A DNA stretch of 60,612 nucleotides from an uncultured Candidatus Poseidoniales archaeon (lineage in GTDB: Archaea > Thermoplasmatota > Poseidoniia > Poseidoniales > CAYMED01). This document shows positions 19,190 to 57,498 of the stretch, piece after piece. Numbering within the stretch: position 1 is the first letter of the stretch; each line of letters begins with the position of its first letter. Under the pieces are notes generated by a model, which was not told the origin of the DNA, made no database searches, and worked only from the letters and a program-made list of their open reading frames with translations. The stretch is from assembly GCA_964389655.1 (NCBI GenBank), contig CAYMED010000017.1, positions 1-60,612 on the forward strand. Direction: 5' to 3'. A program made the translations under genes and the position numbers.

Positions 19190-21136
19190 TCATTTACGCG
19201 GGGAAAGGCCGCGCTTTGTCAACTCTTCAACAGAACATGTGTTCAAAACATCATCAACTCTCAGCCATCCCTTTCTTGCTATGGCAATACCCCAAGTCAA
19301 ATCCGCAAGACCTGCAATACTATGCGCATCTGGATTGATTGCAACAGGAACGGAAGCATTTCGTGCGCGCTTCAAATGCCGCCAATCTGTATCAAGCCGA
19401 TATGGAGAAGCATTGAGTTCGATTGCCTGAAGGCGGCCTTGAAGATTAGTACTTGACATATTTTCAATGACCAATCCAATATCAAGTGGGTATCCATCTC
19501 GTCCACCAAGAATACGCCCCGTAGGGTGTCCAAGCATTGTAACACTTGGGTGACTAAGTGCCTCCATGATCACTTCAGCATTCTCTAATTCATCTCGCCT
19601 TTGCCACCGGGATAAAGGTTGATGGACAGACACAATGACATGATCTAGAGTTGCGAGAGTCTCATCATCATAGTCGAGTGATCCATCAAAGTCTATGTCA
19701 ACTTCACTTCCATGGAAAAGACGGAAATCGGTTCCGTGGTCCTTCCATTCTTGGTTGAGCTTCGCAATCTCATTCCCTTGCTGGAGAAGATCCTCTGGTT
19801 CTGCCCCCGAAGCAATACGCAGGGATTGTGAATGGTCTGAGATCCCCAGCCATGTCCAGCCCATTCGCTGAGCGGCTTCTGCCATTTGCTCTAGTGTTGC
19901 TTGGCCATCAGAAAGTGTAGTGTGGTTGTGAAATGCACCTTGTATATCTGACATTTCAATCAGTTGAGGAAGGTCTCCTTGCTCCGCCGCTTCAATCTCC
20001 CCCATATCTTCTCTCAATTCAGGTTCAACAAAATCGAGCTGAAGAAGACGATAAATCTCAGCCTCTTCCTTGGCAGGGAGGCTATATTCTGCTGCAACTT
20101 CTCCTTTGAGATCACCCATCTTTGATTCTGGAATTAGACCGAATTCATTGAGCCGTAATCCGCGCTCAATCGCCCTTTTCCTCATTCGAATATTGTGTTC
20201 CTTTGATCCAGTAAAGTATGCAAGTGTGAATGCAAAACGCTCAGGGAGGACAATACGGATCTGGGCATCTATAGTCCCACTTGCCTCAAGATGTTCCCAT
20301 GACTCCCCCCCAATTGCCTCAAGGACGTTAGCATCGAGATGTCCAAGTTTGGGATTTGCATCAAGGATTTCAGTGGAAAGGATTAGGCTGGTTTTTGATG
20401 AGCCCGCACCTTTCACACTCGCAATGCCAGGAAACCTGAGAATTGCTTCCTGCACTGCTTCTGCGTCTTCAGGCAATGCTGCAATCACAACATCAAGGTC
20501 ACCCACAGTTTCACGACGACGGCGAGCAGAGCCCGCAAGTTGTGCTCGTTTGACCCCTTTGACATCCAAAATTCGGTCGAGAAAAGCTTGTCCATATCGC
20601 AATGCTGCATCAATGCGACGGCGCCCTCGATAACGCTCAACCAAGGCGATCCCTTCGATGATCCGATTCTGAGATTTCAAACCAAATCCATCAAGAGTCT
20701 CAATTGCTCCATCCTCGCAGGCAGATAGAAGATCCGAGATCGTGTCAATCCCCAATTCATCATAGATCTGCTTAATCCGTTTGGGACCAAGGTTGGGTAT
20801 TTCAAGCATATCAATGAGTCCAGAAGGTGTTTGCTGATGCAATTCAATCCATTCACCCCAGTCACCGTCCTCAAGTGCCATCAAAATGGCTGCAGCTAAC
20901 CCCTTTCCAATTCCCTTAACATCAGTAAGACGCCCTTCACTTGCTAGAAGCCAAAGATCTTCATTGAGGGAAGAAATAATGCGACTGCCATTTTGATACG
21001 CGCGTACTCTGAAAGGGTTGGCGCCTTTGAGTTCAAGTAATACCCCAACATGGCTCAAGGCACCCGCAATTTGTGCACGGCTAAAGAAAGGAGCCTGCTG
21101 GCGCCGGCTCTTCGGCAACCCACTAATGCCTGCCAT
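19190..21136 (-). CDS. polX: Family X DNA polymerase with C-terminal PHP 3'-5' exonuclease domain
   Basis: NPFRVRAY, HhH GIGKG and GPKR, AGSARR, GDLD, YFTGSKEHN, LNEFGL, EPELRED; PHP HNHT..SDG, SDHS, GSEVD, GHPTGR, NPDAH. Confidence 0.95.
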   Translation of the reverse strand: MAGISGLPKSRRQQAPFFSRAQIAGALSHVGVLLELKGANPFRVRAYQNGSRIISSLNEDLWLLASEGRLTDVKGIGKGLAAAILMALEDGDWGEWIELHQQTPSGLIDMLEIPNLGPKRIKQIYDELGIDTISDLLSACEDGAIETLDGFGLKSQNRIIEGIALVERYRGRRRIDAALRYGQAFLDRILDVKGVKRAQLAGSARRRRETVGDLDVVIAALPEDAEAVQEAILRFPGIASVKGAGSSKTSLILSTEILDANPKLGHLDANVLEAIGGESWEHLEASGTIDAQIRIVLPERFAFTLAYFTGSKEHNIRMRKRAIERGLRLNEFGLIPESKMGDLKGEVAAEYSLPAKEEAEIYRLLQLDFVEPELREDMGEIEAAEQGDLPQLIEMSDIQGAFHNHTTLSDGQATLEQMAEAAQRMGWTWLGISDHSQSLRIASGAEPEDLLQQGNEIAKLNQEWKDHGTDFRLFHGSEVDIDFDGSLDYDDETLATLDHVIVSVHQPLSRWQRRDELENAEVIMEALSHPSVTMLGHPTGRILGGRDGYPLDIGLVIENMSSTNLQGRLQAIELNASPYRLDTDWRHLKRARNASVPVAINPDAHSIAGLADLTWGIAIARKGWLRVDDVLNTCSVEELTKRGLSPRK

Positions 21137-21214
21137 GAAATGCGGCAAGGGTATTGACACATAGCATGCATCTATTCGGGTCAGGATTGAACAGGGAGAC
21201 GCGTACGAGGAGCC

Positions 21215-43859: not shown

Positions 43860-44203
43860 TCCCATGGAGGAAGGAACAGTTCGGGGACTTTATGCAAGAT
43901 TGATCTGCAAATATGCTCACAGCGCCTCTTTACTGCCAAATTTTTCGATCGTTTCATGTAGCGGATGTTGCGCTTCTTACGGAGAATATTGCCTATGGCA
44001 GTCCATGCTAAAATAGACTCGATTTGACCAATACAGCGAGAGGGCCGGGCTAAATCAGTAACTCCGGCCCAACTCGCAATATATGATCGAGAATTTGGAA
44101 GCGCATGCTGGCTACACCAGTCCAATCCCATCAGTTTGCTGCGAGGGTGTACATAGACCTGATTATGCAAAACCCACCCCAAATTGAAAGTGAATGTGTT
44201 CAT
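43847..44203 (-). CDS. Possible small basic hypothetical protein
   Basis: ATGA overlap with the rfcS stop; only long ORF filling the gap; no motif. Confidence 0.35.
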   Translation of the reverse strand: MNTFTFNLGWVLHNQVYVHPRSKLMGLDWCSQHALPNSRSYIASWAGVTDLARPSRCIGQIESILAWTAIGNILRKKRNIRYMKRSKNLAVKRRCEHICRSILHKVPELFLPPWDQDA

Positions 44204-45150
44204 CCGGTCAATCGTTGCACCAAGGCGGCTGTGAGAGCATCCAACTGAACTTGTTCGGACCCCCCTTCAACAAGCCGATAATCAATCTCAGCCATGACTT
44301 CTGTGAGGTCCAATTTATCACTTTCAGACAAAAATTCTGCTGCGTAGATTGATCGATGTAACTGCATAACGAAATCTGTACCAGCAAGCCCAAATTCATC
44401 TAGAATCCCCCGCATGCGGCGCCTAGCAGCGTGAAATCCATCCACCTTACAAGCTTCGATGAATGCGTGAAGGGACTCCGGTGGGGCTGTTGCAGTAGTG
44501 TCATAGACTTTGGCTCTCGTAACATGGCGATCAACAGCTGCCGCAACCTGCAGTGTTGTAATTGCCCTACGTAAATCTCCATGACTAACTCTGACAATAG
44601 CCTCAGTAGCCTCTTGGTCAATTGAAACATCCTCGATTTTAGCAATCTCTGTTATTTGAATTTGAACTTCATTATCGGGTAAAGGCCGAAAGCGAAAGAC
44701 TGCACAACGGCTCTGAATTGGTTCAATGATTTTTGACGAGTAATTGCATGACATAATGAAACGACATGTTTCGGCATGTTGCTCCATGATTCGCCTAAGT
44801 GCACCCTGCGCATCAGCAGTCAATGCATCTGCCTCGTCGAGAAATACAACCTTGAATGGCTGCTGATTACGAGGCTGAGTGCGAGCAAATTCCTTGACCT
44901 TTTTTCGCACTGACTCAAGTTTCCGCTCATCACTCGCATTCATTTCCAAAATATTTGCGTTATCACCTAGCACATCTCGGCACAAGGCCATGGCCGCTGT
45001 TGTTTTACCAGTCCCAGGAGGTCCTGCAAGCAAGAGATGAGGGAATGTGCCTGAATTTGCATGACTCCTCAACCGATCAATGACTGACGGTTGACCACGC
45101 ATATCATGGACCGATCGGGGCCGGTGCTTCTCAACCCACAACTCCGTCAT
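44200..45150 (-). CDS. rfcS: Replication factor C small subunit
   Basis: WVEKHRP, GPPGTGKTT, EMNASDER, LDEAD, AQGALRR, SRC. Confidence 0.96.
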   Translation of the reverse strand: MTELWVEKHRPRSVHDMRGQPSVIDRLRSHANSGTFPHLLLAGPPGTGKTTAAMALCRDVLGDNANILEMNASDERKLESVRKKVKEFARTQPRNQQPFKVVFLDEADALTADAQGALRRIMEQHAETCRFIMSCNYSSKIIEPIQSRCAVFRFRPLPDNEVQIQITEIAKIEDVSIDQEATEAIVRVSHGDLRRAITTLQVAAAVDRHVTRAKVYDTTATAPPESLHAFIEACKVDGFHAARRRMRGILDEFGLAGTDFVMQLHRSIYAAEFLSESDKLDLTEVMAEIDYRLVEGGSEQVQLDALTAALVQRLTG

Positions 45151-45256: not shown

Positions 45257-47680
45257 ATGCAATTTGGCCGTGGGATGTGTGCCATCTTACTAGTTCTGCC
45301 ACTTTTCATGCTTGTTCCCCAACCAGCATCCCCTTTCGCTGTTGGGGCAAACTCAGGGAATTTCCAAGTTGATCCCGCTGATTGTTCATCTACAGTTGGC
45401 GTTGATGCAATTCGGATCTCGCCCACTGGACATCGATCAATCACAAGTGACCAAACAATTGATTTTAATGCAATTCTCTTTGATGCAGGAGGTGGTGATG
45501 TTGAAGGAAAAGTCTACTGGTCATCGTCCTCAGGCTTAATTGATCGTGAAACTGGTTTTTTTGTACCTGCTGAAACTGGTTCTGTAACTGTTGCTGCATG
45601 TGCTGGAAATGAAGTCGAAATGACAACAGTTACTGTTCGGCAGGGTGCAACGATTTCTCTTGAAATCGAGAGTGAAATTCACTCGATCACAACAGACGAA
45701 ACACTTGATTTAGTACTCTGGGCAGTAGATAGCAAAGGGAACCGGGAGTTAGCTCTTATTCCAATGATGAATTGGGAGGTCGAAGGAGGCCTTCAGCCCA
45801 GTTGGAAAGCAACCTATTACCAATTCACACCTCGCTTTGTCGGAAATTGGAGCATCGTTGCAAAGTCTGCTGATTCGGCTGCCACAGCAACGTGGTGGGT
45901 CGATGTGTCGCCAGGCATAGCGCGAAGTGCTGTACTTCGGACAGATAGTGTTGAAATGACGACAGATGATTCAATTCGGCTTTGGATCGAACTTTCCGAT
46001 GCAAAAGGGAACATTTGGCCCGCAGAGGGCCGAATTACTGCAGTTGATTCAATTGCGCGAACTTGGGTCTCAAATGATGGAGACAACTGGATATTCTCAC
46101 CTACTCGAATCGGCTCTTGGATTCTTGAAGCAGTCTATGATGGATCTGCTGCTAGCAATGCACTTTTGGATACTGAAACGATCACAGTAGCCGCAGGGGA
46201 TCTTGCGAACCTTGCTATCGATGGAGAAGGAGAAATAGTGACTGTGGATCAGAAATTATCGCTAAACCCTGTGTTTACAGACCAGCATGGAAACGAGGTT
46301 GTACCCCGGAATGTGTTATGGATCGTAGATGGGGCTGACATGTCCTCCGAACTTAATGCCAATGCGTGGAGATTAGCGCAAAGTTCTGCAGGAGCGCACA
46401 CCGTGATTGCCTCTGCAGAAGGCCGTGTTGCAAGAATTAGTTATGAGGTGACTCCAGGTACATGTGCCGATATTGATACATCACTCGACCGTGTTCTGAG
46501 AATAGAAGCAGGAATGGATGTACCTTTCATTGTAAGTTGCACTGATACTCATGGAAACAAGTATCCTGTAGAAGTTAATTGGGAAGGTTCGCCAAATGCG
46601 GTAGAGATCACACCAGATGAGGCTGGAGGCTTAGGTGCATTCCAACTCCGTGGAATCAAGGTTGGGGAACATCAACTTACTATGATTGCTGATGACCGTG
46701 AAGAAACGTTTTTTGTTACTGTTCTCGCTTCTAGCCTTGCCAAGCTCAATGTCGTCCATGACACAGACGCGAATCAAGGAGATCAATTCACATTTACAGT
46801 ACATGGAGAAGATGCATGGGGGAACTCAGTCCCTGTGAACGAATCATCCCTTGTGGTCGAGACTTCAATTGGGGAGGTCAGTGCACCGAATGAAGGGGAA
46901 TTTACAGTACTTGCAGAGTATGATGGAACACAACAACTCATCGTGGTCCAGTCAGGTGATATCACAGAACTAATCTATGTAGATATACGACCAAACCTCT
47001 TCGAAGGGAAATTTGGTTCCTCTGAGAATGTTCTCGTTGGTGTCATAGGAGGGAATTCATTTTTGCTCCTAGGTGCACTTCTTGTTCTTCTCTATGTAAG
47101 CCGGCTTGCTCCTGTGCGGATCGAAGATCTAGAAGCGGAAGACGAAATAAGTGCAGCCATATCCTCGAACCAGAACAACCAATATAGCAATATAGCCGGA
47201 AATGAGTATGTTGGACCACCTAGTCCGCCTGTATCCCCACCGCCATCTTTGCCAGCAGCATGGAAAGCAGCTGTTGACCCATACGCTTGGTCTGCTGCTG
47301 CACCCGAAAATTCACCTACCGATCTCGCAATTGCTTCCGCATCATTGCTCGGAGAAAAACAACAGTCAGACCCCTACGGAGCTGCTGCTGCTGCAAGTTT
47401 GTTGGTTCCAACTACTTCGAATATAGTTGACACTCCTGCCGCTCAAAGTGTTCAAAATCAGGTGACATCACCACCTCTCGAGGAAAAGCAGCCGCCAATA
47501 TCTGAAACAAAGCCTCCTGCTGGAAATGTAACAACCAACCCGCTCCCAACAGACCCAACAGGAGCGGCAATGAGGGCAGTTCCTGGAACTGTAGCCGGGA
47601 AAACGGGATGGTACCTAGGCACAGATGGAATGCCGAAATACATGGCGTGGGAATCTGGCGAATGGAAACTCCGTTCATGA
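45257..47680 (+). CDS. Ig-like repeat surface protein, single TM, Pro-rich cytoplasmic tail
   Basis: Recurring D.xGN motif (DSKGN, DAKGN, DQHGN, DTHGN, DAWGN); signal peptide. Confidence 0.7.
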   Translation: MQFGRGMCAILLVLPLFMLVPQPASPFAVGANSGNFQVDPADCSSTVGVDAIRISPTGHRSITSDQTIDFNAILFDAGGGDVEGKVYWSSSSGLIDRETGFFVPAETGSVTVAACAGNEVEMTTVTVRQGATISLEIESEIHSITTDETLDLVLWAVDSKGNRELALIPMMNWEVEGGLQPSWKATYYQFTPRFVGNWSIVAKSADSAATATWWVDVSPGIARSAVLRTDSVEMTTDDSIRLWIELSDAKGNIWPAEGRITAVDSIARTWVSNDGDNWIFSPTRIGSWILEAVYDGSAASNALLDTETITVAAGDLANLAIDGEGEIVTVDQKLSLNPVFTDQHGNEVVPRNVLWIVDGADMSSELNANAWRLAQSSAGAHTVIASAEGRVARISYEVTPGTCADIDTSLDRVLRIEAGMDVPFIVSCTDTHGNKYPVEVNWEGSPNAVEITPDEAGGLGAFQLRGIKVGEHQLTMIADDREETFFVTVLASSLAKLNVVHDTDANQGDQFTFTVHGEDAWGNSVPVNESSLVVETSIGEVSAPNEGEFTVLAEYDGTQQLIVVQSGDITELIYVDIRPNLFEGKFGSSENVLVGVIGGNSFLLLGALLVLLYVSRLAPVRIEDLEAEDEISAAISSNQNNQYSNIAGNEYVGPPSPPVSPPPSLPAAWKAAVDPYAWSAAAPENSPTDLAIASASLLGEKQQSDPYGAAAAASLLVPTTSNIVDTPAAQSVQNQVTSPPLEEKQPPISETKPPAGNVTTNPLPTDPTGAAMRAVPGTVAGKTGWYLGTDGMPKYMAWESGEWKLRS

Positions 47681-47731: not shown

Positions 47732-49456
47732 GTGGAGGTAGTTGAAGAAGGCGACGAGCCCGTAGAAACAGCCGCTTCGAGAGATTTCCCTTCGATACCT
47801 CCACGTATTCTCTGGGCCATGTTAATTCTTGGAATTCTTCTCCGCCTCATCTCATTCGCATTTGCGACAATCGGCGTCGATGCTCATGTTCACATTGCAT
47901 ATGCATCAAGCCTTGCGCATGAAGGGAATACGGAGTTAGAATGGGGACCAATCAATAACTATTGGAATCACTCAGCATCACATCCAAATTCAACTTCAGA
48001 AGGAGTAGGTAATCGATACATATTGTGGCACGCATATCTTGCCACGCTGGGTTCATTAGGTGGTTGGAATGAAACCACTTTCAAAGTTGCGAGCTTGTTC
48101 CATTCGGCACTCTTCCTAGGCACTGTGTGGGTAGCAACTCAGCGGCGATATGGCCGCAATGCAGCATTGCAAGTCACCGCAATTGCGAGTTGCCATCAAT
48201 TGCTAATTCTAGTCGCTGTTCAATCCTATCAAGAAGAGATCTTAGCCACGATAATGGTGGGAGCTGTCTGGTCATTTTTAGCTGCGGAGGAGCAGCGAAA
48301 AGAGGGCACACGACCGACTTGGATTCTAGTTACTTCCCTTTGTACTATTGCATTTATTTTTATCAAAGGGATGGGAATTTACTTGTTGCTCGCATTGGCC
48401 TTAATTGGACTAATATGGTTCTTTGTCATCACCAAACCAAATTCAAGGGCGTTGGATTTTCTTCGGCGGCGAAAATGGATTGCTATTGGATACGCAGTCC
48501 TGCTTTTGTGGGGGGCAATGCTTGTTGCTGGGTTCTTTGATATCACACCTGTATGGCATCGATTGAAGATGAATCCCACGATGTTTGTGCTAGCATTCTT
48601 TCTCTCAATAATTGCTTACATGTTGTGGTGGGGACTGATGTCATTCATTCTTCTCCCTCACTTACCAGAGATGCTACGTAGGCTGACAAAAACGCACAGC
48701 CCAATATCGGTGATTCATCTGAGTATGATCACAATCATCCCCTTAGCATTCATCATTCTGACAAACGCAGGATTATGGACACATGAAGCGGGGATTTTGG
48801 ATGTGGGGTTGTTCGTATTCGATGACCCACGCACTGAACGGCCTTTCGGGGGATGGTCAAATGGCCGATATCTGACAATCATGCTAGTGCCCGCTTGGTG
48901 GCTTCTATTGGAATGCCGAAAGTATGCAATTGAAGGAGATGATGATGATATCGAGAAATTAGTTCAGCCGTTCAAGAGCATTGCTAAGTCCAACCAAAAT
49001 GGTGCTTTTTGGGTTGGTTCAATGTGGGTCCTTGTCATTGCTACAATGCTAACGGCATTGATTCCACCTGCTTTTTTCATTGCGCATCACCATCCTGTTG
49101 AAGCATCTAAGGCTATGGGAGAAGTTCTAGAAGATGGAGAAGAATTTCTTGTGATTACTTACCCAAGACAGAACCACCACCGCTTGTATCAACTCCGACT
49201 AGGTATCGACCCTGATGACTCACGAAACATCATGGGCCATTGGAGAGACAATGAAGCACCGTGGGCATCTGAAATTGAAGACTGTCTAATTCCTGAATAT
49301 GCAGGAGACATACGTAGCGTAGATTGGATTGCAATTTGGAAAGATGTTCCTGCGCTAAATGTCAGTGGATATGTAATCCGAGATATAGGCATGCCAGAAG
49401 GATGGACTGTAATGGAACGAACAGGAAGTCCTACGTGTCCTCCAATCTCGAGTTAG
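47732..49456 (+). CDS. GT-C fold (ArnT/PMT-like) membrane glycosyltransferase
   Basis: N-terminal TM + acidic loop (VDAHVH), many TMs, GRYL..LVP, soluble C-terminal domain. Confidence 0.55.
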   Translation: MEVVEEGDEPVETAASRDFPSIPPRILWAMLILGILLRLISFAFATIGVDAHVHIAYASSLAHEGNTELEWGPINNYWNHSASHPNSTSEGVGNRYILWHAYLATLGSLGGWNETTFKVASLFHSALFLGTVWVATQRRYGRNAALQVTAIASCHQLLILVAVQSYQEEILATIMVGAVWSFLAAEEQRKEGTRPTWILVTSLCTIAFIFIKGMGIYLLLALALIGLIWFFVITKPNSRALDFLRRRKWIAIGYAVLLLWGAMLVAGFFDITPVWHRLKMNPTMFVLAFFLSIIAYMLWWGLMSFILLPHLPEMLRRLTKTHSPISVIHLSMITIIPLAFIILTNAGLWTHEAGILDVGLFVFDDPRTERPFGGWSNGRYLTIMLVPAWWLLLECRKYAIEGDDDDIEKLVQPFKSIAKSNQNGAFWVGSMWVLVIATMLTALIPPAFFIAHHHPVEASKAMGEVLEDGEEFLVITYPRQNHHRLYQLRLGIDPDDSRNIMGHWRDNEAPWASEIEDCLIPEYAGDIRSVDWIAIWKDVPALNVSGYVIRDIGMPEGWTVMERTGSPTCPPISS

Positions 49457-50826
49457 AGAGGGCGCTTTGCGAGAACTTTCAGTTCAACTGCAATCGGGGT
49501 GGGTAGGGCTCCAACTTCGATCGTCGTTCTAGTAGGGGCAATCGCGCCCAACCTTTTGCCATAGACTTCATTGAATCCAGAGAAATCACGATCCATATCA
49601 ACAAGGAATGCTGTGATATCAACGACATCACCTAAACTGGCACCTGCTGATTCAAGAATGTGTTGCACATTGTCAATGCAAGCATCTGTTTGAGCACGTA
49701 TATCGTAATTTCCAGCACGACCATCTGGGCCCCATCGAGGCCCCCCCGGAATAGTATCTGAACCTGATTGACGAGGACCTACGCCTGAAAGAAGAATTAG
49801 GTCCCCAAAATGGCGAGCATGCGGGTAGGCACCCACAGGTACTGGTGCTGCATCTGAATGGACAACATCTCCATTTTTAGATTCTAAAGAGAGAGGAGGG
49901 TTTTGTTCAGTAGAGTCAGCCTCAGCAAGGACTTCTCGGTCGCCCGACCACACCTCAATTTCATCTTCATCATATTCCTTCATTCCAGTGCCTGCTTCAG
50001 ATGGCCAGAGGCTAACTACTGCGGCGCCAGTTCCGTGAATAGGGGCATAAGCATGGACATGACCTTCATACGAATTAGTAGCGCCACATAACGCCGATAA
50101 GAACCAAGCCGGTTTGAAGTTGACAACTTTGGGAACTCGGACTTGTTTGTGTATCTCTCGTGAGAGTTGTGCTACATCTTCAAGGCGACCATCTGCTAGA
50201 AATTCAAGGATTTTCTGATTCCATTCCTCATCTTTCGCCGAGTGAATGCGGTCATCTATGGCATTGATCGGGTCTGTAAAAAAGCGATTTGAGAGAGACA
50301 TTACAGCAACCCCTACTGCCGTTTTCCCCTGAGATTTCAATGTATCAAGACAAGACTTCGCTAGTACTGTTGTCTCTGCGCGATCAGCATATATGTTCGA
50401 AGAGACGATGACTGCGGGAATCTCCTTGTTAGGAGTCAGTAATTCCAGTGCGATTACAGAACCAGTATCAATTGGAAAGCCATGGTAGTCAACTGTTCGA
50501 GAGATTAAACCCCGGCCTTTTGCAGCAAGATGCCAAGCATGAGCAAAATCAGCATCAATACGGAGCTTGTATGGAACTGAACCGAGTGCGTGGAAGTCTG
50601 GGTCAACGAGTACCCAGTCCGGTTCTGGTCTTGCTTGAATTTGATGGCCAATAATTGAGGGCCACAGGGTGCTGTAAATGATGAGGATATCTGGAGAGGA
50701 AGCATGTATTCTTTCTGCTGCTTCAGCATATCCATCCGCTAGAGATTTCCATCCAGGATTCTCACTGGGACACAAGACAAGATGAGGGTGGGGGGGGGCA
50801 ATAAGGCCACCGAGAATGTTACTCAT
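49453..50826 (-). CDS. amnA: Fusion: 2-aminophenol 1,6-dioxygenase alpha subunit + RidA-family 2-aminomuconate deaminase-like domain
   Basis: YSTLW, VDYHGFPIDTG, DRI..KDEEWN, GTGAAV (alpha subunit); acidic linker; PVGAYPHA, SGVGP, FNEVY, PTRTT, LPTPIAVELK (RidA). Confidence 0.85.
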   Translation of the reverse strand: MSNILGGLIAPPHPHLVLCPSENPGWKSLADGYAEAAERIHASSPDILIIYSTLWPSIIGHQIQARPEPDWVLVDPDFHALGSVPYKLRIDADFAHAWHLAAKGRGLISRTVDYHGFPIDTGSVIALELLTPNKEIPAVIVSSNIYADRAETTVLAKSCLDTLKSQGKTAVGVAVMSLSNRFFTDPINAIDDRIHSAKDEEWNQKILEFLADGRLEDVAQLSREIHKQVRVPKVVNFKPAWFLSALCGATNSYEGHVHAYAPIHGTGAAVVSLWPSEAGTGMKEYDEDEIEVWSGDREVLAEADSTEQNPPLSLESKNGDVVHSDAAPVPVGAYPHARHFGDLILLSGVGPRQSGSDTIPGGPRWGPDGRAGNYDIRAQTDACIDNVQHILESAGASLGDVVDITAFLVDMDRDFSGFNEVYGKRLGAIAPTRTTIEVGALPTPIAVELKVLAKRPL

Positions 50827-51713
50827 TCAGACACCTCAAGGTCCCAACTAACTACTGCATTTCCAGTTCCAATAACCGTCCCATATGCGTGCAGTTCTCC
50901 AGGGATAGTTGGCATCCCCATTGCACCCATCAACCAAGTCATGGCACCTCCATCTGTTTCTGCAACTGCATGGTCTGTAAATTCAGGCATGATATCAACT
51001 ATCTCTTGTGATTTCCCACCTTTGATTAATTCGATCATGCGCATGTCCCAAAGGTATTGATGATGATTATTGATGAATTCATGGCTCATATCCTCAGGTA
51101 TGGGGGGTTCAGTTACAAAATGACGATGCGAAAGGGAATTTGAAGCAAGTAATAATGCTCTTTTACCCGACTTTTGGATGGCCCTAGTCGTTGCACGGCC
51201 TAGAGCCAGCATCTGTTCTTGCATTACTTCAACTGAATAATAGGCTGCCGAGCGAAAACTCGAGAGACAGACGATAGGTATGTCCCACTCTGGATTCACA
51301 AGATGGCAAGAGGTAATAGTCCCATAATCGACGCGAAATTCGGGATTTTTCATCAATTGTGTAACAAGCCCATCAGAACCCGCCTCTGCGTGGATCGATT
51401 CTGCAAGGCCCACATCAACTTCAAGGTCATAGTGAAAGCGAAATAAATTCGGAAAAATCGGATCCACCGAAAGGGATTGAAACCGTTCACAAGCAAGGAT
51501 GTGAGTCCCAACATATGTTTGCCAGTGAGGGGACAAGATTACGATGACATCAATTCCTTTTCCTTCCAATTGCTTTCGAAGACGTTCATACCCCCAGCGG
51601 AGAACTTCCCATCCACATTCTGCTGTAGGTTCATTTTGGGGGGGATTTTCAGCATAAACGAGGTGAGGGGGGTGAGGTGCAAGTGCGCCCATCACAACGC
51701 TACCTTGACCCAC
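50823..51713 (-). CDS. amnB: 2-aminophenol 1,6-dioxygenase beta (catalytic) subunit, LigB superfamily
   Basis: LAPHPPHLVY.ENPPQNEP, GWEVLRW.YER, SPHW, SVDPIFP, FRVDYGTIT, ASN.LSH, PEDMS.E, YGTVIGTGNAV; start GTG 51713 or ATG 51692. Confidence 0.92.
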   Translation of the reverse strand: MGQGSVVMGALAPHPPHLVYAENPPQNEPTAECGWEVLRWGYERLRKQLEGKGIDVIVILSPHWQTYVGTHILACERFQSLSVDPIFPNLFRFHYDLEVDVGLAESIHAEAGSDGLVTQLMKNPEFRVDYGTITSCHLVNPEWDIPIVCLSSFRSAAYYSVEVMQEQMLALGRATTRAIQKSGKRALLLASNSLSHRHFVTEPPIPEDMSHEFINNHHQYLWDMRMIELIKGGKSQEIVDIMPEFTDHAVAETDGGAMTWLMGAMGMPTIPGELHAYGTVIGTGNAVVSWDLEVSE

Positions 51714-51794
51714 ATGAGGGGGTACGCCTTCTATCGATTGAAGTCTTCGGCTACTAGAGATAGGAATGATGTGCAAGCCCGAAGTCGCCCATTT

Positions 51795-52247
51795 ATGGAG
51801 GAGAGCGAAGGGCCTGTGATCCCACCTCCTGTGGAAGTCGGTCGCTTTCGCCCAGTTGCCATTCCATCCCTCATAGGGATTGGTGCTGGAATCACAGCAT
51901 CCATAGCAATCCAGAATGGATTTGCAATCGGCCTCGGCACACTAGATGAACTCATTATTGGTATTTTTCTTTGTGCAGCAGGCCTCTCATTAGCCGCATT
52001 ATGGGAAGTTGGAAGAAGTCGGAGCTGGGAAATTTGGCTCGGTCTCATACCACCATTTGTTTTGCTCTTATCTGCCATTTACGTGATTCCAATATGTGGG
52101 ATCTCATTAGCAGTCACTGTTTGGGCAGGGCTATCTTTGGCATGGGCTGAGCAACGACTTCCCCCCTTCCGGCTCGGAATTTGGTGGGGTATGGGAGGAA
52201 CTTGTGGGGTTATTTCGGGGTCAGTTTTAGCTGCATTGATCACCTAA
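51795..52247 (+). CDS. Hypothetical membrane protein
   Basis: About 5 hydrophobic helices; start ATG 51795. Confidence 0.6.
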   Translation: MEESEGPVIPPPVEVGRFRPVAIPSLIGIGAGITASIAIQNGFAIGLGTLDELIIGIFLCAAGLSLAALWEVGRSRSWEIWLGLIPPFVLLLSAIYVIPICGISLAVTVWAGLSLAWAEQRLPPFRLGIWWGMGGTCGVISGSVLAALIT

Positions 52248-52469
52248 TCAAGTGCCACCCATTTCATCTGCGACGAGAGCTAAAGAGACTTCATGACGAT
52301 GAAATGCCTCGTGACCGGCTAGAAAACCACCCGCCTCGCGTTTGGTACCTAGCATCTCTTCACCACATATTGCACAACATACTCGAACAATCTCAGCTTC
52401 GAGTTCCAATACCCCCTGTCGTTCAACTCGAACAATGGAGCCTTCTGCGATCTCATCATCTAAGGCCAT
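52248..52469 (-). CDS. Small putative Zn-finger protein
   Basis: CCAICG..GHEAFH (C2H2-like); co-directional with the ALDH. Confidence 0.55.
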   Translation of the reverse strand: MALDDEIAEGSIVRVERQGVLELEAEIVRVCCAICGEEMLGTKREAGGFLAGHEAFHRHEVSLALVADEMGGT

Positions 52470-52507
52470 GGACCCGGCGGTTGGACTCTAGAGTTGAAAC
52501 CATCGGA

Positions 52508-53968
52508 TCAAAATTGCTCATCGACTTGACAGATTGAGCGCACTTCGGAAAAGAATTCAAGTGCCCAACGTCCACCTTCTCGCCCCACGCCAGAGGCTTT
52601 TAGTCCTCCAAATGGAACTCGTAAATCTCGTTTCAGCCAGCCATTTATCCAAACGGTCCCAGAATGAAGAGAAATTGCAATTCGATTCGCTTTTTCAATA
52701 TCAGCAGACCAAACCCCCCCTGAAAGACCATATTGGGTTGCATTTGCTATCGAAATTACTTCTTCTTCAGAAGTAAATGGTGCCATGACGACAACGGGCC
52801 CAAATATTTCTTCCATATGGCAGCGATGATCAAGCGGAAGGGAATCAATTACAGTGGGTTCAAGAAAAGAACCCTCGTCAAAGGGTGCAGGAAGACTAGG
52901 TCGAGAGCCACCAGTTAGAATCCTTCCACCTGCTGATTTGGCGAGAGCAATATAATCCTCCACTTTAGCACGATGGTCTTGATTGATAAGGGCGCCAAGT
53001 TGTGTGTTAGAATTCAATGGATCACCAATCTTCATTTTTGAAACACGTTCACTGAATGCTAGAACAAGTAGATCATATGCATTTGATTCAATGAGCAAGC
53101 GGCTCCCGCAAAGGCATATTTGTCCTTGATTAAGGAAACTAGAGCGCACTAAACCATCTAGTGTATTTTCTATGCGCTCCGGTGTACAAGCATCTGCAAA
53201 AACAATGGTGGAATTTTTACCTCCAAGTTCCAAACTGGTTTTGGCAAATCGTCTTGCTGTGGCTGAGGCTACTCTCTTTCCAGTTTCAGTTCCACCAGTA
53301 AATGAAATGGCACCTACATCTTTGTGTTCGGTCAAAGCTTGTCCTGCTTGAGAACCTAACCCATGCACCATATTCAGCACACCTGCTGGCAAGATAGCTG
53401 AGCTTATTTCAGCAAGCAGGTTTGCAGTCATTGGAGTCAGTTCACTGGGTTTACAAACAACGGTATTTCCCATCGCCAAGGCTGGAGCGACTTTCCATGA
53501 AAGGAGGTAAAGCGGGAGATTCCAAGGACTGATCAGACCACAAATACCTACCGGGTCATAGACGGTTCGAGTACTTGCTCCTTCGATTTCAAATACTTGT
53601 CCACTAAATTCCCGTACCTGGTCTGCAAAGAATCGAAAATTTGCAACAGAGCGGGCAGCATCAACACTACGTGCTAGAGCAATTGGCTTTCCAGTATCTC
53701 GAGATTCAAGTTCTGCAATTTCTTCAGATCTATGCTCTAGTGCATCTGCTATTGCTTCAAGCATGTCTGCTCGTTCCGCAGGGGAACAAGCACCCCAACT
53801 TGGTTGAACGGCTTTCGCTTCCTCGACTGCGGCATCCACATCTACCTTTGTTGATGATGGAATTCTAGCAAGAAGATCACCCGTAGCGGGGTTATGATTT
53901 TCGAGCATCTCCCCGCTTTCGGAAGGGGCCCATCGGCCCCCGATGAAGTTGTATAGTTCCCGGCTCAT
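52508..53968 (-). CDS. Aldehyde dehydrogenase, 2-aminomuconate/hydroxymuconate semialdehyde dehydrogenase type (AmnC/ALDH8-like)
   Basis: ISPWNLPLYLLSWKVAPA, KPSELTP, FTGG, LELGGKN, NQGQICLCGSR, EEIFGP, RDLRVPFGG. Confidence 0.85.
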   Translation of the reverse strand: MSRELYNFIGGRWAPSESGEMLENHNPATGDLLARIPSSTKVDVDAAVEEAKAVQPSWGACSPAERADMLEAIADALEHRSEEIAELESRDTGKPIALARSVDAARSVANFRFFADQVREFSGQVFEIEGASTRTVYDPVGICGLISPWNLPLYLLSWKVAPALAMGNTVVCKPSELTPMTANLLAEISSAILPAGVLNMVHGLGSQAGQALTEHKDVGAISFTGGTETGKRVASATARRFAKTSLELGGKNSTIVFADACTPERIENTLDGLVRSSFLNQGQICLCGSRLLIESNAYDLLVLAFSERVSKMKIGDPLNSNTQLGALINQDHRAKVEDYIALAKSAGGRILTGGSRPSLPAPFDEGSFLEPTVIDSLPLDHRCHMEEIFGPVVVMAPFTSEEEVISIANATQYGLSGGVWSADIEKANRIAISLHSGTVWINGWLKRDLRVPFGGLKASGVGREGGRWALEFFSEVRSICQVDEQF

Positions 53969-54047
53969 GACGACTGATGACGCTCTTCGCGTTTCACCGC
54001 TTCGGCTACACGACAAGTTGACGAACATCTTTCCCCTCCCGCACCTT

Positions 54048-55259
54048 ATGAGCGGACGTGAGTTGAGACGCGAAACTGTGGCAATCCATTCTGGACTTGA
54101 GCCAGAAGTGACGACGGGGGCAATTCAGCCACCTATTTTTCAAACATCAACATATGCACAAAGCGGATTTGCTGAGCATAAGGGATACGAATACGCTCGC
54201 ACCTCAAATCCAACTCGAGAAGCACTTGAAACCGCACTCGCAGCGATAGAAGCGCCCGATGAAGAAAGGACTACTGAAGCGATTTGTTTCTCATCAGGCA
54301 TGGCTGCAATAAGCGCAATTGTAGATCTTCTCGATAGTGGGGATTCAATACTAACTGTAGATGACTTATACGGTGGAACGGTTCGATTCCTAAGGGATGT
54401 TGTCTCACGACGCGGGATTACAACACAATATAATCCAATGACTGAAGTCAACCAATGCACAAGCAAAGATGTGCTCGGTGAAGCTGTCAAGTTGTTTGAC
54501 CGCATTGGAACCGCTGCGACTAAAATGCTATGGGTTGAGACACCCACCAACCCACTATTGCGGATACATGACCTAGAAGCACTGTGCAATGCTGCAAAAA
54601 AACGGGGATGGACAACAGTCGTAGATAACACGTTTGCATCACCCATCTTACAGAACCCGCTTTCCTGTGGAGCTGACCTTGTTGTTCATTCAACGACAAA
54701 ATATGTTGGAGGACATTCGGATGTAATTGGTGGCGCTGTCATTACCGCTAATCCGGTGCTCGCTGAAAGAATTCGGTTCCTACAGAAAACAGTGGGGGCA
54801 ATTCCCGGCCCATGGGATTGCTTCCTTCTGCTTCGTGGTTTGCGAACCCTTCCTCTACGAATGGAGCGCCACTGCGAAAATGCATCTGAATTGGCACGGC
54901 GCTTAGAAGCGCATCCGAAAGTAACTTCGGTGATTTATCCGGGCCTCTCTTCCCACCCAGGACACGAAATAGCCACTCGCCAAATGAAAGGTTTTGGTGG
55001 AATGATCTCCGTTGAAGTCGAAGGGGGAGTGGAAGGTGCTCGGCGTTTTGCTAATAAATTGCGAATTTGGACGATTGCTGAGAGTCTTGGAGGGTTTGAA
55101 AGTTTACTCAACCATCCATGGACAATGACACATGCAAGCATTTCTGAAGAACAACGCATCAAGAATGGCCTCAAACCAGGACTTATGCGTTTTTCAGTTG
55201 GACTTGAACATGTGGATGACCTATGGAATGATTTGAATCAGGCCTTGGAGGCAATCTGA
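54048..55259 (+). CDS. Cystathionine gamma-lyase/synthase family PLP enzyme
   Basis: PPIFQTSTY, YARTSNPT, SSGMAA, ETPTNP, DNTFA, HSTTKYVGGHSD, ESLGG. Confidence 0.92.
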   Translation: MSGRELRRETVAIHSGLEPEVTTGAIQPPIFQTSTYAQSGFAEHKGYEYARTSNPTREALETALAAIEAPDEERTTEAICFSSGMAAISAIVDLLDSGDSILTVDDLYGGTVRFLRDVVSRRGITTQYNPMTEVNQCTSKDVLGEAVKLFDRIGTAATKMLWVETPTNPLLRIHDLEALCNAAKKRGWTTVVDNTFASPILQNPLSCGADLVVHSTTKYVGGHSDVIGGAVITANPVLAERIRFLQKTVGAIPGPWDCFLLLRGLRTLPLRMERHCENASELARRLEAHPKVTSVIYPGLSSHPGHEIATRQMKGFGGMISVEVEGGVEGARRFANKLRIWTIAESLGGFESLLNHPWTMTHASISEEQRIKNGLKPGLMRFSVGLEHVDDLWNDLNQALEAI

Positions 55260-56351
55260 TTAAGATCCATCTTTTGAATTCCATTCATCAACGTCGAAGT
55301 CATTCTCACGCAACCAATCATCATCGAAGATTTTGCCAAGGTAAAGCGTTCCTGCGTCTGGAAGAATCGCTACAACTCGTGCAATTTCCCCACGTGAATC
55401 GGATTCCTCTGCCAACTTAACAGCAATTGCAACAGCGCCACCACAAGATCCTCCAACTAACATCCCTTCTTCTCTTGCCAGTCGGCGCGTCCATCGAAAA
55501 CAGACCGCATCATTCACGCGACGAATTTCTGAGATTCGGCTGAAATCTGTAGCTGGAGGTATGAAGTCTTCACCGAATCCTTCAACTTTGTAAGTATGTG
55601 GCACACCTATCTTTCCTTCGTCAAACCACTGTTTGAGAATCGATCCTTCAGGATCAACTCCAACGATCATAGGCATATTCTTGCCATCACGTTTGGACAA
55701 TTCAGCAAACGATTCTGCACAACCTGAAATTGTACCACCAGTCCCCATTGTTGCGACAAAATGTGTAAGTTCTCCACATGTTTGTTGCCAAATTTCAGGA
55801 CCTGTTTGCACAATATGTGCCCTAGGGTTTGCTAGATTGCTATATTGATCAGGGTACCAAGCATTTGGAATGTCACGGGCCAAGCGAGATGCCACCTCGT
55901 AATATGAGCGAGGGTCTTCCTTCTCGACAGCAGTAGGGCAAACTTCGACTTGTGCACCCAATGCGCGCAATTGATTGATTTTGTCTTGGCTCATTTTATC
56001 GGGCATCGTAAATATACAACGATATCCGCGTTGAGCGGCTACCATCGCAAGCCCCATCCCTGTGTTTCCACTTGTTGCCTCGATGATTGTGCCCCCAGGC
56101 TTTAGCAAACCTTCACGTTCTGCTTCCAATACCATTTCAAGTCCAATTCGGTCCTTGATCGAGCCTCCGGGATTGCATCGTTCATATTTCACCCAAACTT
56201 CCGATTTTCTGAGGTGGGCAGTTAGGCGATTTAAGCGGATCAATGGGGTATTGCCAATTGCATCAACAATATCCGGATAGACCCCCACGTCACGACTCCA
56301 AACCATCAAACCGCCTGAAGCACAAGCAGCCCTTGATGGCTTCGTAGACAA
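55260..56351 (-). CDS. cbs: Cystathionine beta-synthase (short form, no regulatory domains) / cysteine synthase family
   Basis: NPGGSIKDR, EATSGNTGMGLA, PDKMS..K, CPT.V..EDPRSY, DQY.N..NP, YKVEG.GEDF. Confidence 0.85.
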   Translation of the reverse strand: MSTKPSRAACASGGLMVWSRDVGVYPDIVDAIGNTPLIRLNRLTAHLRKSEVWVKYERCNPGGSIKDRIGLEMVLEAEREGLLKPGGTIIEATSGNTGMGLAMVAAQRGYRCIFTMPDKMSQDKINQLRALGAQVEVCPTAVEKEDPRSYYEVASRLARDIPNAWYPDQYSNLANPRAHIVQTGPEIWQQTCGELTHFVATMGTGGTISGCAESFAELSKRDGKNMPMIVGVDPEGSILKQWFDEGKIGVPHTYKVEGFGEDFIPPATDFSRISEIRRVNDAVCFRWTRRLAREEGMLVGGSCGGAVAIAVKLAEESDSRGEIARVVAILPDAGTLYLGKIFDDDWLRENDFDVDEWNSKDGS

Positions 56352-56358
56352 TTATGGA

Positions 56359-57498
56359 TTATCTTGGGAGAGCATATTGCTCAACATCCCAAAGCCATCT
56401 GTCCGTATCAGGATCCCATTCATCCCAAGTTGGTATTGATTCAAGGTTCTCAAGAAGACTTTCAGGAACAACTCCTGGAACGATGAAGGCTTTTTGTCGA
56501 TGTGTACGATAGGGGTTACGCAATTCAATGCCAAGTACACCTAGACACGCACGTGCAACATGCCAAGTCGCTTGAGGATTCCATCCATGCGCAATCTTGA
56601 CAACAATGCCAAGCCCTTTGGGAAACTGTGGATGTTGTGCTGAAATACCTAGAAGGCCGTCAGCACCTTCCTTCGCAATTGCAACACCATTTGCTGCTTT
56701 AAGGATCGTCGAGTCTAGGCGGTTGAAGCCGCCAATCAGATCAGGATAAGCAAGCATCGAAGACCAAATCCAATCTTCATCCTTCTCGCACGCTAGCACC
56801 GCAAACAAACGAGCAAGCTCATTCACGCTGTTAGATACGGTTGGCAGGCCACAACCATCACGCGCAACGCGAAGGGGTTTCCAATCCGATCCCAAAGTTC
56901 GACGAAGCACGTCAAGATACGCTGAAAATAACGGATGACTAGGCAATGTATACCCAATCCGAGACCATCCCTTAACTCGACAAGCGGCAAGAATTGCTGC
57001 ATGTTCTCCAGAGCATGTGTGATACCAGCGACGTGGACGGCGTACTTGTCGCCCAAACTGGATCAATGGAACATCCAATGGCGTTCGCATAAGGGATTGT
57101 TCTGATTCATCGAGCAAGGACATGGCTGCTTCAACATGTTCAGTATCACCATTGTGGCTTGACAATGCAATCGCTCGCTGCTCATCACTACAATCTGCGA
57201 GTTCATTGATGAAGATTTTCATCAGAAAAGGCTTCATCATGCTACGCCCATAACAAAGGACATTCCCTCCAAAGGAATGGAAGATTTCATCGCCGTGTGC
57301 CCAAGCCACGGCGCCATGGATCGTTGTTTCAGAAACTCCATTTCTGCGATAATCAACCAATGGTTGCCACTCCACATCGCGACCTGTCGGAATCCCATCG
57401 ACATCCTCCCCAAGTGGTGAAGATGGATACGTCGCACTGCCAGGTCTTCCCGGTGAAACTGCAGATGCGTTCCAAGCATCCCCAAGCCTATTGGCCAT
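56359..57498 (-). CDS. L-asparaginase II (Rhizobium AnsA-type, class 3) family protein
   Basis: RSMMKP, SSHNG, TCSGEH, DGCGLP, AKEGADG. Confidence 0.8.
   Translation of the reverse strand: MANRLGDAWNASAVSPGRPGSATYPSSPLGEDVDGIPTGRDVEWQPLVDYRRNGVSETTIHGAVAWAHGDEIFHSFGGNVLCYGRSMMKPFLMKIFINELADCSDEQRAIALSSHNGDTEHVEAAMSLLDESEQSLMRTPLDVPLIQFGRQVRRPRRWYHTCSGEHAAILAACRVKGWSRIGYTLPSHPLFSAYLDVLRRTLGSDWKPLRVARDGCGLPTVSNSVNELARLFAVLACEKDEDWIWSSMLAYPDLIGGFNRLDSTILKAANGVAIAKEGADGLLGISAQHPQFPKGLGIVVKIAHGWNPQATWHVARACLGVLGIELRNPYRTHRQKAFIVPGVVPESLLENLESIPTWDEWDPDTDRWLWDVEQYALPR

Follow-up and report, generated by a model that had tools for sequence, protein, structure and literature searches.

The window analysed here is a 60,612-nucleotide stretch of contig CAYMED010000017.1 (GenBank assembly GCA_964389655.1; contig C17 below) from an uncultured Candidatus Poseidoniales archaeon. 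The genome measures 2.1 Mb, with a completeness of 93% and a contamination of 5.7%; within the order Poseidoniales it is placed in a third, small family. Four genes of interest, all located on the minus strand between positions 49453 and 57498, encode (i) an asparaginase-II-like hydrolase, (ii) an aldehyde dehydrogenase (ALDH), (iii) a LigB-type protein and (iv) a LigB-like protein fused to a RidA domain. Their positions and predicted products are as follows.

49453-49875, minus strand: RidA domain, predicted 2-aminomuconate-deaminase type (residues ~318-457 of the fusion protein, plus the stop codon)
49876-50001, minus strand: acidic linker (KEYDEDE...) between the alpha and RidA domains, part of the fusion protein
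50002-50826, minus strand: AmnA/CnbCa-type non-catalytic alpha domain (residues 1 to ~275 of the fusion protein; E-value of 5.6e-41 to 7TXY_A)
50823-51776, minus strand: predicted AmnB/CnbCb-type catalytic beta subunit of 2-aminophenol 1,6-dioxygenase
52508-54028, minus strand: ALDH of the 2-aminomuconate 6-semialdehyde dehydrogenase (AMSDH) type, AmnC/NbaE-like
56359-57498, minus strand: asparaginase-II-like Ser-Lys hydrolase (PF06089, 167 bits), a conserved partner of the other three genes

An earlier note on this DNA had placed the beta, alpha-RidA and ALDH genes at these positions and on this strand, and had assigned them to the AmnB, AmnA::RidA and AMSDH types. Both the positions and the family identities were confirmed, the latter by matches to the structure database and by the active-site residues described below.

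The longest open reading frame (ORF) of the beta subunit starts from TTG and encodes 317 amino acids (aa). The real start is likely to be a GTG at position 51713, which would give a 296-aa protein, since the alignment begins only at residue 24. The protein matches the Pfam family LigB (PF02900) with 87 bits. A phmmer search returned E-values of 2.7e-107 for 3VSG_B (CnbCb, the beta subunit of 2-amino-5-chlorophenol 1,6-dioxygenase) and 1.3e-105 for 8IHG_A (AmnB), while the next family outside the Amn group, HpaD, reached 4e-11 at best. The identity to cnbCb of plasmid pCNB1 is 54.5% (tblastn). In an alignment with the CnbCb protein translated from this plasmid, His35, His84 and Glu273 correspond to His13, His62 and Glu251, which we take from the work on 3VSG to be the Fe(II) ligands, and Tyr151 and His217 correspond to Tyr129 and His195, which are presumably catalytic. 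The motifs HPPH, SPHW, VDYG, LSH and AVAE, named in the earlier note, were all found. In a phylogenetic tree, the beta subunits of fusion-bearing genomes (the window, bacteria and other Poseidoniales) form one clade (SH-like approximate likelihood-ratio test, SH-aLRT, 81), which is sister to the classical proteobacterial AmnB/CnbCb group (SH-aLRT 99). Judged by its sequence, the protein is an AmnB/CnbCb-type subunit of 2-aminophenol 1,6-dioxygenase, predicted to cleave 2-aminophenol to 2-aminomuconate semialdehyde.

The stop codon of the beta gene and the ATG of the downstream gene overlap by ATGA, as had been read earlier. The downstream gene (49453-50826) encodes a 457-aa fusion protein, whose residues 1-272 match AmnA/CnbCa with E-values of 6e-41 to 6e-38. 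At the positions of the iron ligands of the beta subunit the alpha domain reads Pro/Leu/Lys and is therefore ligand-less, as is CnbCa. The linker that follows differs in length among relatives, with 21-49 residues between conserved anchor motifs. The RidA domain (PF01042, 73.6 bits) has the 2-aminomuconate deaminase 6IZH as its closest solved relative (E-value of 2.8e-23), and aligns with it from end to end, including an insertion that is missing from the generic RidA protein 2CSL. The arginine of the P-T-R-T-T motif is present in 80/80 fused sequences examined (77 PTRTT and 3 ATRTT). With the family model TIGR00004 the domain scores 77 bits, under the cut-off of 106. By these similarities, the domain is assigned to the 2-aminomuconate-deaminase type. 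The joining of AmnA to a deaminase is a Rosetta-stone fusion, and it lends independent support to RidA-type proteins as the 2-aminomuconate deaminase of the pathway.

The ALDH gene, which encodes a 506-aa protein, is located upstream of the beta gene on the same strand, and 732-795 nt separate its end from the beta start; the true start of the ALDH is probably located downstream of position 54028. All five of the closest proteins of solved structure are 2-aminomuconate 6-semialdehyde dehydrogenases (E-values of 1.9e-130 to 7e-123, 439-414 bits), whereas betaine-aldehyde dehydrogenases score approximately 350 bits. An alignment to 4I1W revealed that the counterparts of Arg120, Asn169, Glu268, Cys302 and Arg464 (Pseudomonas fluorescens numbering) are all retained; we take Cys302, Glu268 and Asn169 to be catalytic, and Arg120 and Arg464 to bind the substrate carboxylate. 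Best matches and residues thus agree with the AmnC/ALDH8-type dehydrogenase that had been proposed upstream of the beta gene. The best NCBIfam match is TIGR03216 (2-hydroxymuconic semialdehyde dehydrogenase; 523.5 bits, below the cut-off of 693), and no curated equivalog cut-off was passed. The protein is divergent, with 49-55% identity to the ALDHs of related clusters, and in a tree it forms a long, basal branch of the AmnC/AMSDH clade. The possibility that it is a displaced paralogue was rejected, as it groups with this clade, far from the other ALDHs of the genome.

The genes that accompany this set in other genomes were identified by clustering the ORFs of 80 related loci, followed by annotation of representatives. 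In Poseidoniales, the conserved string begins with an alpha/beta hydrolase, a short-chain dehydrogenase/reductase (SDR), a tetratricopeptide repeat (TPR) protein, a luciferase-like flavin monooxygenase (LLM), the asparaginase-II-like hydrolase and the ALDH. A LON-substrate-domain protein, PanB and a small membrane protein (encoded on the opposite strand) may follow, and the string ends with AmnB, AmnA::RidA and an amino-acid permease. The permease located directly downstream of AmnA::RidA (e.g. L008:11476-13143) carries a pair of EF-hands at its C-terminus, an unusual feature in an APC transporter. Three partners of this module, the LLM, the asparaginase-II-like hydrolase and the SDR, have no characterised function.

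A similar arrangement is present in bacteria. A 439-kb bacterial contig carries, in order, genes encoding tryptophan 2,3-dioxygenase (TDO), SDR, LLM, the asparaginase-II-like hydrolase, ALDH, an inserted gene, AmnB, AmnA::RidA and a cyclase-type kynurenine formamidase (KynB), all co-directional except for one small gene. Comparable arrangements were found in two metagenome-assembled genomes (MAGs) of Myxococcales and in another bacterium. The gene inserted into the bacterial operon between the ALDH and amnB (L092:7179-8759) encodes a 526-aa protein with a weak match to parallel beta-helix proteins. The same five to seven genes are kept together from archaea to Myxococcota.

In the genome of the window the genes do not form one cluster. 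The window itself encodes the hydrolase, ALDH, AmnB and AmnA::RidA, whereas the SDR and LLM genes adjoin each other on contig C23 (their products being 63% identical to the Poseidoniales copies), the LLM in the region 19948-21168, and TDO is encoded on contig C3 (55879-56889, 189 bits), beside unrelated genes. An amino-acid permease is encoded on C21 and PanB on C35. The sister genome G006 has the order hydrolase, ALDH, a 73-aa ORF, a membrane protein (opposite strand), AmnB and AmnA::RidA.

The genes, described in the earlier note from an archaeon, are not confined to a single genome. The fusion protein has more than 3000 relatives at approximately 60% identity in metagenomic protein collections. 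Relatives were also traced to at least 505 genomes at the species level, which are mainly Poseidoniales (Marine Group II), with a few from Myxococcota, Eiseniibacteriota and further bacteria. When the order was sampled evenly, 143 of 151 genomes contained AmnB, including 57 of the 58 high-quality ones, and all 22 genera were represented. In Marine Group II archaea the module is a core trait that is conserved vertically. The eight sampled Poseidoniales MAGs that lack AmnB retain TDO (8/8), the hydrolase (8/8) and the LLM (7/8). In two of the eight, alpha::RidA is located at a contig edge and AmnB was probably lost to assembly. As a test of joint loss, these eight MAGs count neither for nor against a link between the genes. 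Our full-text searches of the literature found no description of the AmnA::RidA fusion, of the partner set or of the pathway proposed below, although the enzymes themselves belong to known families.

Several lines of evidence connect the module with the degradation of tryptophan. TDO was detected in 59 of 61 sampled genomes of the order and, in several bacterial phyla, TDO and KynB share an operon with the module. We also examined 91 genomes from a bacterial class in which the trait is patchy, namely the class of one of the Myxococcota MAGs with the operon. AmnB and the LLM occur together in 48 of these genomes, AmnB alone in one, the LLM alone in five and neither in 37, and TDO is present in 48 of the 49 AmnB-positive and 22 of the 42 AmnB-negative genomes; these counts are descriptive and overstate the evidence, as genomes of one clade are not independent. 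In at least 17 of the 91 genomes, TDO shares a contig with the LLM and/or AmnB, at a distance of no more than approximately 15 kb. The sample shows that the LLM goes with AmnB and that the host genomes of the module are positive for TDO and negative for kynureninase.

These observations bear on a rival explanation, namely that the module serves on its own to scavenge or detoxify 2-aminophenol, or further o-aminophenols, present in free form in the organic matter of seawater and has no link to tryptophan, the LLM, hydrolase and SDR serving some other purpose. The classical enzymes do act on free aminophenols, and such a role would agree with the location of TDO outside the cluster in Poseidoniales, with the failure to find a formamidase in the genome of the window, and with the adjoining amino-acid permease and the lack of a clear regulator in relatives. 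It would leave unexplained why the LLM and AmnB, both patchy in the bacterial class, are so rarely found singly there, why TDO and KynB are part of the operon in several bacterial phyla, and why the same genes stay together between archaea and Myxococcota. We therefore consider scavenging unlikely, and the origin of the 2-aminophenol from tryptophan, taken by itself, probable.

In the kynurenine pathway of bacteria and animals, tryptophan is converted to 2-aminomuconate by TDO, KynB, kynurenine 3-monooxygenase (KMO), kynureninase, 3-hydroxyanthranilate dioxygenase (3-HAO), aminocarboxymuconate semialdehyde decarboxylase (ACMSD), AMSDH/NbaE and a deaminase (NbaF). The presence of its middle enzymes was examined by family searches of the whole genome, for which positive controls gave hits elsewhere, with the exception of 3-HAO (PF06052). 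Kynureninase (TIGR01814) and ACMSD (Amidohydro_2, PF04909) had no match in the genome, and for 3-HAO neither this genome nor the control genomes gave any. The best FAD_binding_3 protein, examined as a KMO candidate, is a geranylgeranyl reductase (TIGR02032 over the cut-off; best PDB match 3OZ2) and was rejected; a protein of this family, of approximately 410 aa, is encoded in every sampled genome. Kynureninase exceeded the cut-off in only one of 41 sampled Poseidoniales (G039:C29:6106-7323, 425 bits), a gene that was possibly acquired or is contamination. In the sample of 91 bacterial genomes no protein exceeded the cut-off (0/91), with one match of 235 bits just below it. Since kynureninase is missing from that whole sample, complementarity between it and the module is uninformative there.

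The earlier note had proposed a natural, tryptophan-derived substrate, for example 3-hydroxyanthranilate, and had predicted the presence of kmo and kynU without 3-HAO. The link to tryptophan is supported by the bacterial operons with TDO and KynB and by the co-occurrence with TDO. The route through 3-hydroxyanthranilate is unsupported, because the predicted signature was not seen: kynureninase was not found and the FAD_binding_3 protein is not KMO.

A related possibility is that the LLM replaces KMO, converting kynurenine to 3-hydroxykynurenine, and that AmnBA cleaves 3-hydroxykynurenine or 3-hydroxyanthranilate directly. Both compounds are o-aminophenols, an enzyme of the LLM type could hydroxylate an aromatic ring, and neither KMO nor, in the search that lacked a working control, 3-HAO was found. 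Nevertheless, there is no kynureninase to produce 3-hydroxyanthranilate and no ACMSD to decarboxylate its cleavage product. Furthermore, the beta subunit retains the full CnbCb active site, the ALDH retains the two arginines that presumably bind the single carboxylate of 2-aminomuconate semialdehyde, and the invariant asparaginase-like hydrolase would be left without a role. This hydroxylation route is improbable, to about the same degree as scavenging.

The reading that we prefer is that the window encodes the ring-cleavage half of a 2-aminophenol catabolic pathway, the 2-aminophenol most likely being derived from tryptophan. The steps assigned to AmnBA, the ALDH and the RidA domain follow from family membership and conserved residues. 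The upper half may rely on Baeyer-Villiger chemistry, as kynurenine is an aryl ketone. The complete pathway would consist of the following reactions: (i) TDO (contig C3) would convert tryptophan to N-formylkynurenine, (ii) a formamidase would release kynurenine, (iii) the LLM (contig C23) would place an oxygen atom between the aromatic ring and the carbonyl group of the side chain of kynurenine (or N-formylkynurenine), yielding a beta-aspartyl 2-aminophenyl ester or, after an O-to-N acyl shift, N4-(2-hydroxyphenyl)asparagine, (iv) the asparaginase-II-like hydrolase would split this ester or amide into L-aspartate and 2-aminophenol, (v) AmnB, in a heteromer with the non-catalytic AmnA domain, would convert 2-aminophenol and O2 to 2-aminomuconate 6-semialdehyde, (vi) the ALDH would oxidise the semialdehyde to 2-aminomuconate with NAD(P)+, and (vii) the RidA domain fused to AmnA would convert 2-aminomuconate to 4-oxalocrotonate (2-hydroxymuconate) and ammonia.

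Steps (iii) and (iv) would account for the LLM and the hydrolase, neither of which has a characterised function, and would explain the apparent lack of KMO, kynureninase and ACMSD together with the presence of a ring-cleaving enzyme of the 2-aminophenol type. We put this chemistry forward tentatively, as somewhat less than an even chance. The general proposal that Poseidoniales and many uncultured bacteria degrade tryptophan by a kynureninase-free route (the LLM as Baeyer-Villiger enzyme, then the hydrolase, AmnB-AmnA::RidA and AMSDH), with aspartate, 4-oxalocrotonate and ammonia as products, is offered more tentatively still.

The hydrolase is 74% identical to the Poseidoniales cluster copy, and its motifs GRSMMKP, CSGEH, DGCGLPT and KEGADG vary little or not at all among 58 members. 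It belongs to the same fold family as the Rhizobium etli-type L-asparaginase (PF06089; 7OS3, 8CLY), and retains the Ser-x-x-Lys, Ser, two Cys and Lys sites of that enzyme, i.e. its Ser-Lys catalytic pairs and cysteines. It differs in scoring only approximately 55-67 bits against the solved enzymes and in reading C-S-G-E-H in all 58 members examined, where Glu replaces the zinc-binding Lys of C-S-G-K-H. This replacement fits a changed substrate, and the location of the gene beside those of the LLM and ALDH suggests an N4- or O-substituted aspartyl compound. The structural model of the LLM (predicted local distance difference test score, pLDDT, 85.5; predicted TM-score, pTM, 0.86) has the luciferase TIM-barrel fold of peroxyflavin-forming monooxygenases. 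No match to it was obtained by phmmer in the PDB or in NCBIfam, and the Atlas returned only clusters of hypothetical proteins. The SDR may act as the flavin reductase partner of the monooxygenase, or may reduce 4-oxalocrotonate, or 2-aminomuconate towards 2-oxoadipate.

Candidates for the formamidase of step (ii) are encoded in the clusters of relatives, which carry a cyclase or an alpha/beta hydrolase. On contig C23 of the window genome (G000), a divergent 250-aa protein of the formyltransferase family (L085:12104-12856, minus strand; PF00551, 48 bits) is encoded directly upstream of the SDR and LLM genes, on the same strand, at the position where other Poseidoniales have the alpha/beta hydrolase (a possible formamidase). 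This protein may handle the formyl group of N-formylkynurenine.

The fate of the ring-cleavage products was examined in the same manner. The searches of the genome gave no match to FAA_hydrolase (PF01557; 4-oxalocrotonate decarboxylase and 2-oxopent-4-enoate hydratase) or to the tautomerase family (PF01361), and nothing over the cut-off for 4-hydroxy-2-oxovalerate aldolase (TIGR03217). This could be taken to indicate a biosynthetic module, in which the semialdehyde cyclises to picolinate, quinolinate (for NAD) or another pyridine. Aminomuconate semialdehydes do cyclise spontaneously, and the gene set is universal in a streamlined lineage. However, flux would be drawn away from cyclisation both by the dedicated dehydrogenase for the semialdehyde and by the deaminase that is joined to the dioxygenase, and quinolinate would require a carboxylated substrate, for which no source was seen. 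A biosynthetic function is very improbable, more so than either of the two alternatives discussed above.

A number of observations weigh against the catabolic reading and the route proposed for it. In the genome of the window the genes are distributed among contigs C17, C23 and C3, with two unrelated genes inserted between them, and TDO is unlinked to the cluster here as in other Poseidoniales. TDO is also common in genomes without the module, as the AmnB-negative part of the bacterial sample demonstrates, and the non-independence of those genomes weakens the co-occurrence counts. Some Poseidoniales MAGs carry the SDR-LLM-hydrolase-ALDH genes with no AmnBA detected. In two of them, from one genus, these four genes are intact in the middle of a contig (G135:C8, locus L099, and G067:C8, locus L100), and AmnB/AmnA::RidA were not found in the next ~10 kb or elsewhere in these genomes (83-87% complete), which may reflect a real loss of the ring-cleavage step. 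A formamidase of either known type was not found in the genome of the window, using PF04199 and tblastn with both candidate types. The fold of the LLM is generic and gives no sign of Baeyer-Villiger specificity, with Foldseek returning only generic luciferase, SsuD/MsuD and F420-type matches at 13-17% identity. The substrate of AmnBA is predicted from 52-55% identity to characterised enzymes. Finally, no lower meta-pathway that could take up the carbon of 4-oxalocrotonate was found in this 93%-complete genome. Taking both sides into account, we assign a probability of roughly 0.6 to the reading that the window encodes the ring-cleavage half of 2-aminophenol catabolism, with tryptophan as the most likely source.

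Among the neighbours of the module scanned in the window we detected no nitroreductase, mutase or transposase gene, in accordance with the earlier note, and the context is not that of a xenobiotic pathway. The remaining features of the region are as follows.

44200-45150: small subunit of replication factor C (RFC), which marks the window as archaeal
51795-52247, plus strand (opposite to the module): multi-pass membrane protein of ~150 aa, weak but positional match to cluster 5
52248-52469, minus strand: 73-aa ORF between the ALDH and membrane protein genes
53943-55259, plus strand: pyridoxal phosphate (PLP) enzyme of the cystathionine-gamma-lyase/synthase family
55260-56351, minus strand: PLP enzyme, cystathionine-beta-synthase/cysteine-synthase-like

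The two PLP enzyme genes, located between the hydrolase and ALDH genes, form an insertion that is absent from the sister genome G006 and from all 80 related loci. The position of the small membrane protein gene, just upstream of amnB, is conserved in Poseidoniales, and its product is 39% identical to the G006 copy. The 73-aa ORF occupies the same position in G006, where its counterpart shares 59% identity over 73 aa; it contains a C-C-x-x-C ... H-x-x-x-H-x-H pattern, and a family search gave no match. Neither Pfam nor NCBIfam gave a match for two large proteins, of 807 aa (45257-47680, plus strand) and 574 aa (47732-49456, plus strand). Relatives of the former are encoded downstream of the module in most Poseidoniales loci, adjoining a 1700-1900-aa paralogue.

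The module may be compared with three known systems. It shares with the classical amn/cnb/nbz clusters of proteobacterial nitroarene and aniline degraders (e.g. cnbCaCb of pCNB1 from Comamonas testosteroni CNB-1; 3VSG, 8IHG) the two-subunit LigB dioxygenase with a catalytic beta and a ligand-less alpha subunit, the tightly coupled beta-then-alpha gene order, the AMSDH-type ALDH and the RidA-family deaminase. It differs in that (i) its beta subunits form a separate sister clade, 52-55% identical to the classical proteins, (ii) the alpha subunit is fused to RidA, which is encoded by a separate gene in the classical clusters, (iii) the decarboxylase, hydratase, tautomerase and aldolase genes of the classical amn/cnb clusters, and the nitroreductase gene of one of them, are missing, as are mobile elements, (iv) the LLM, asparaginase-II-like hydrolase, SDR, TDO and KynB are absent from the classical amn/cnb clusters, and (v) it is chromosomal and vertically conserved across an archaeal order.

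The kynurenine pathway resembles the proposed route at both ends, with TDO at the start and an AMSDH-type dehydrogenase and a RidA-type 2-aminomuconate deaminase at the end. Three of its four middle enzymes (KMO, kynureninase and ACMSD) were not found, the fourth, 3-HAO, being unmatched in a search without a working control, and the semialdehyde would here be formed from 2-aminophenol instead of 3-hydroxyanthranilate. The logic of the proposed upper part is that of aryl-ketone catabolism, in which a Baeyer-Villiger monooxygenase and an esterase convert 4-hydroxyacetophenone via 4-hydroxyphenyl acetate to hydroquinone: oxygen would be inserted beside the ring, hydrolysis would give a phenol and an acid, and ring cleavage would follow. 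In the module, however, the monooxygenase is a divergent luciferase-like protein (group C) of no named family, and an asparaginase-II-like hydrolase stands in place of an alpha/beta-fold esterase.

2-Aminophenol dioxygenases are a textbook case of enzymes that were recruited to degrade man-made nitroaromatics. The finding that the module is a core trait of Marine Group II, and that in bacteria it is wired to the first two genes of tryptophan degradation, points to a natural function for them, as well as to a branch of tryptophan catabolism that is missing from the known routes. If the proposed route is true, these "xenobiotic" dioxygenases would have a natural and ancient role in very abundant archaea of the surface ocean, and two new activities would be added to those known, namely a monooxygenase that performs the Baeyer-Villiger reaction on kynurenine and a hydrolase of beta-aspartyl aminophenol. 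It would also explain the use of kynurenine by organisms that have TDO but lack kynureninase, and would bear on the recycling of amino acids and nitrogen by abundant heterotrophs of the ocean.

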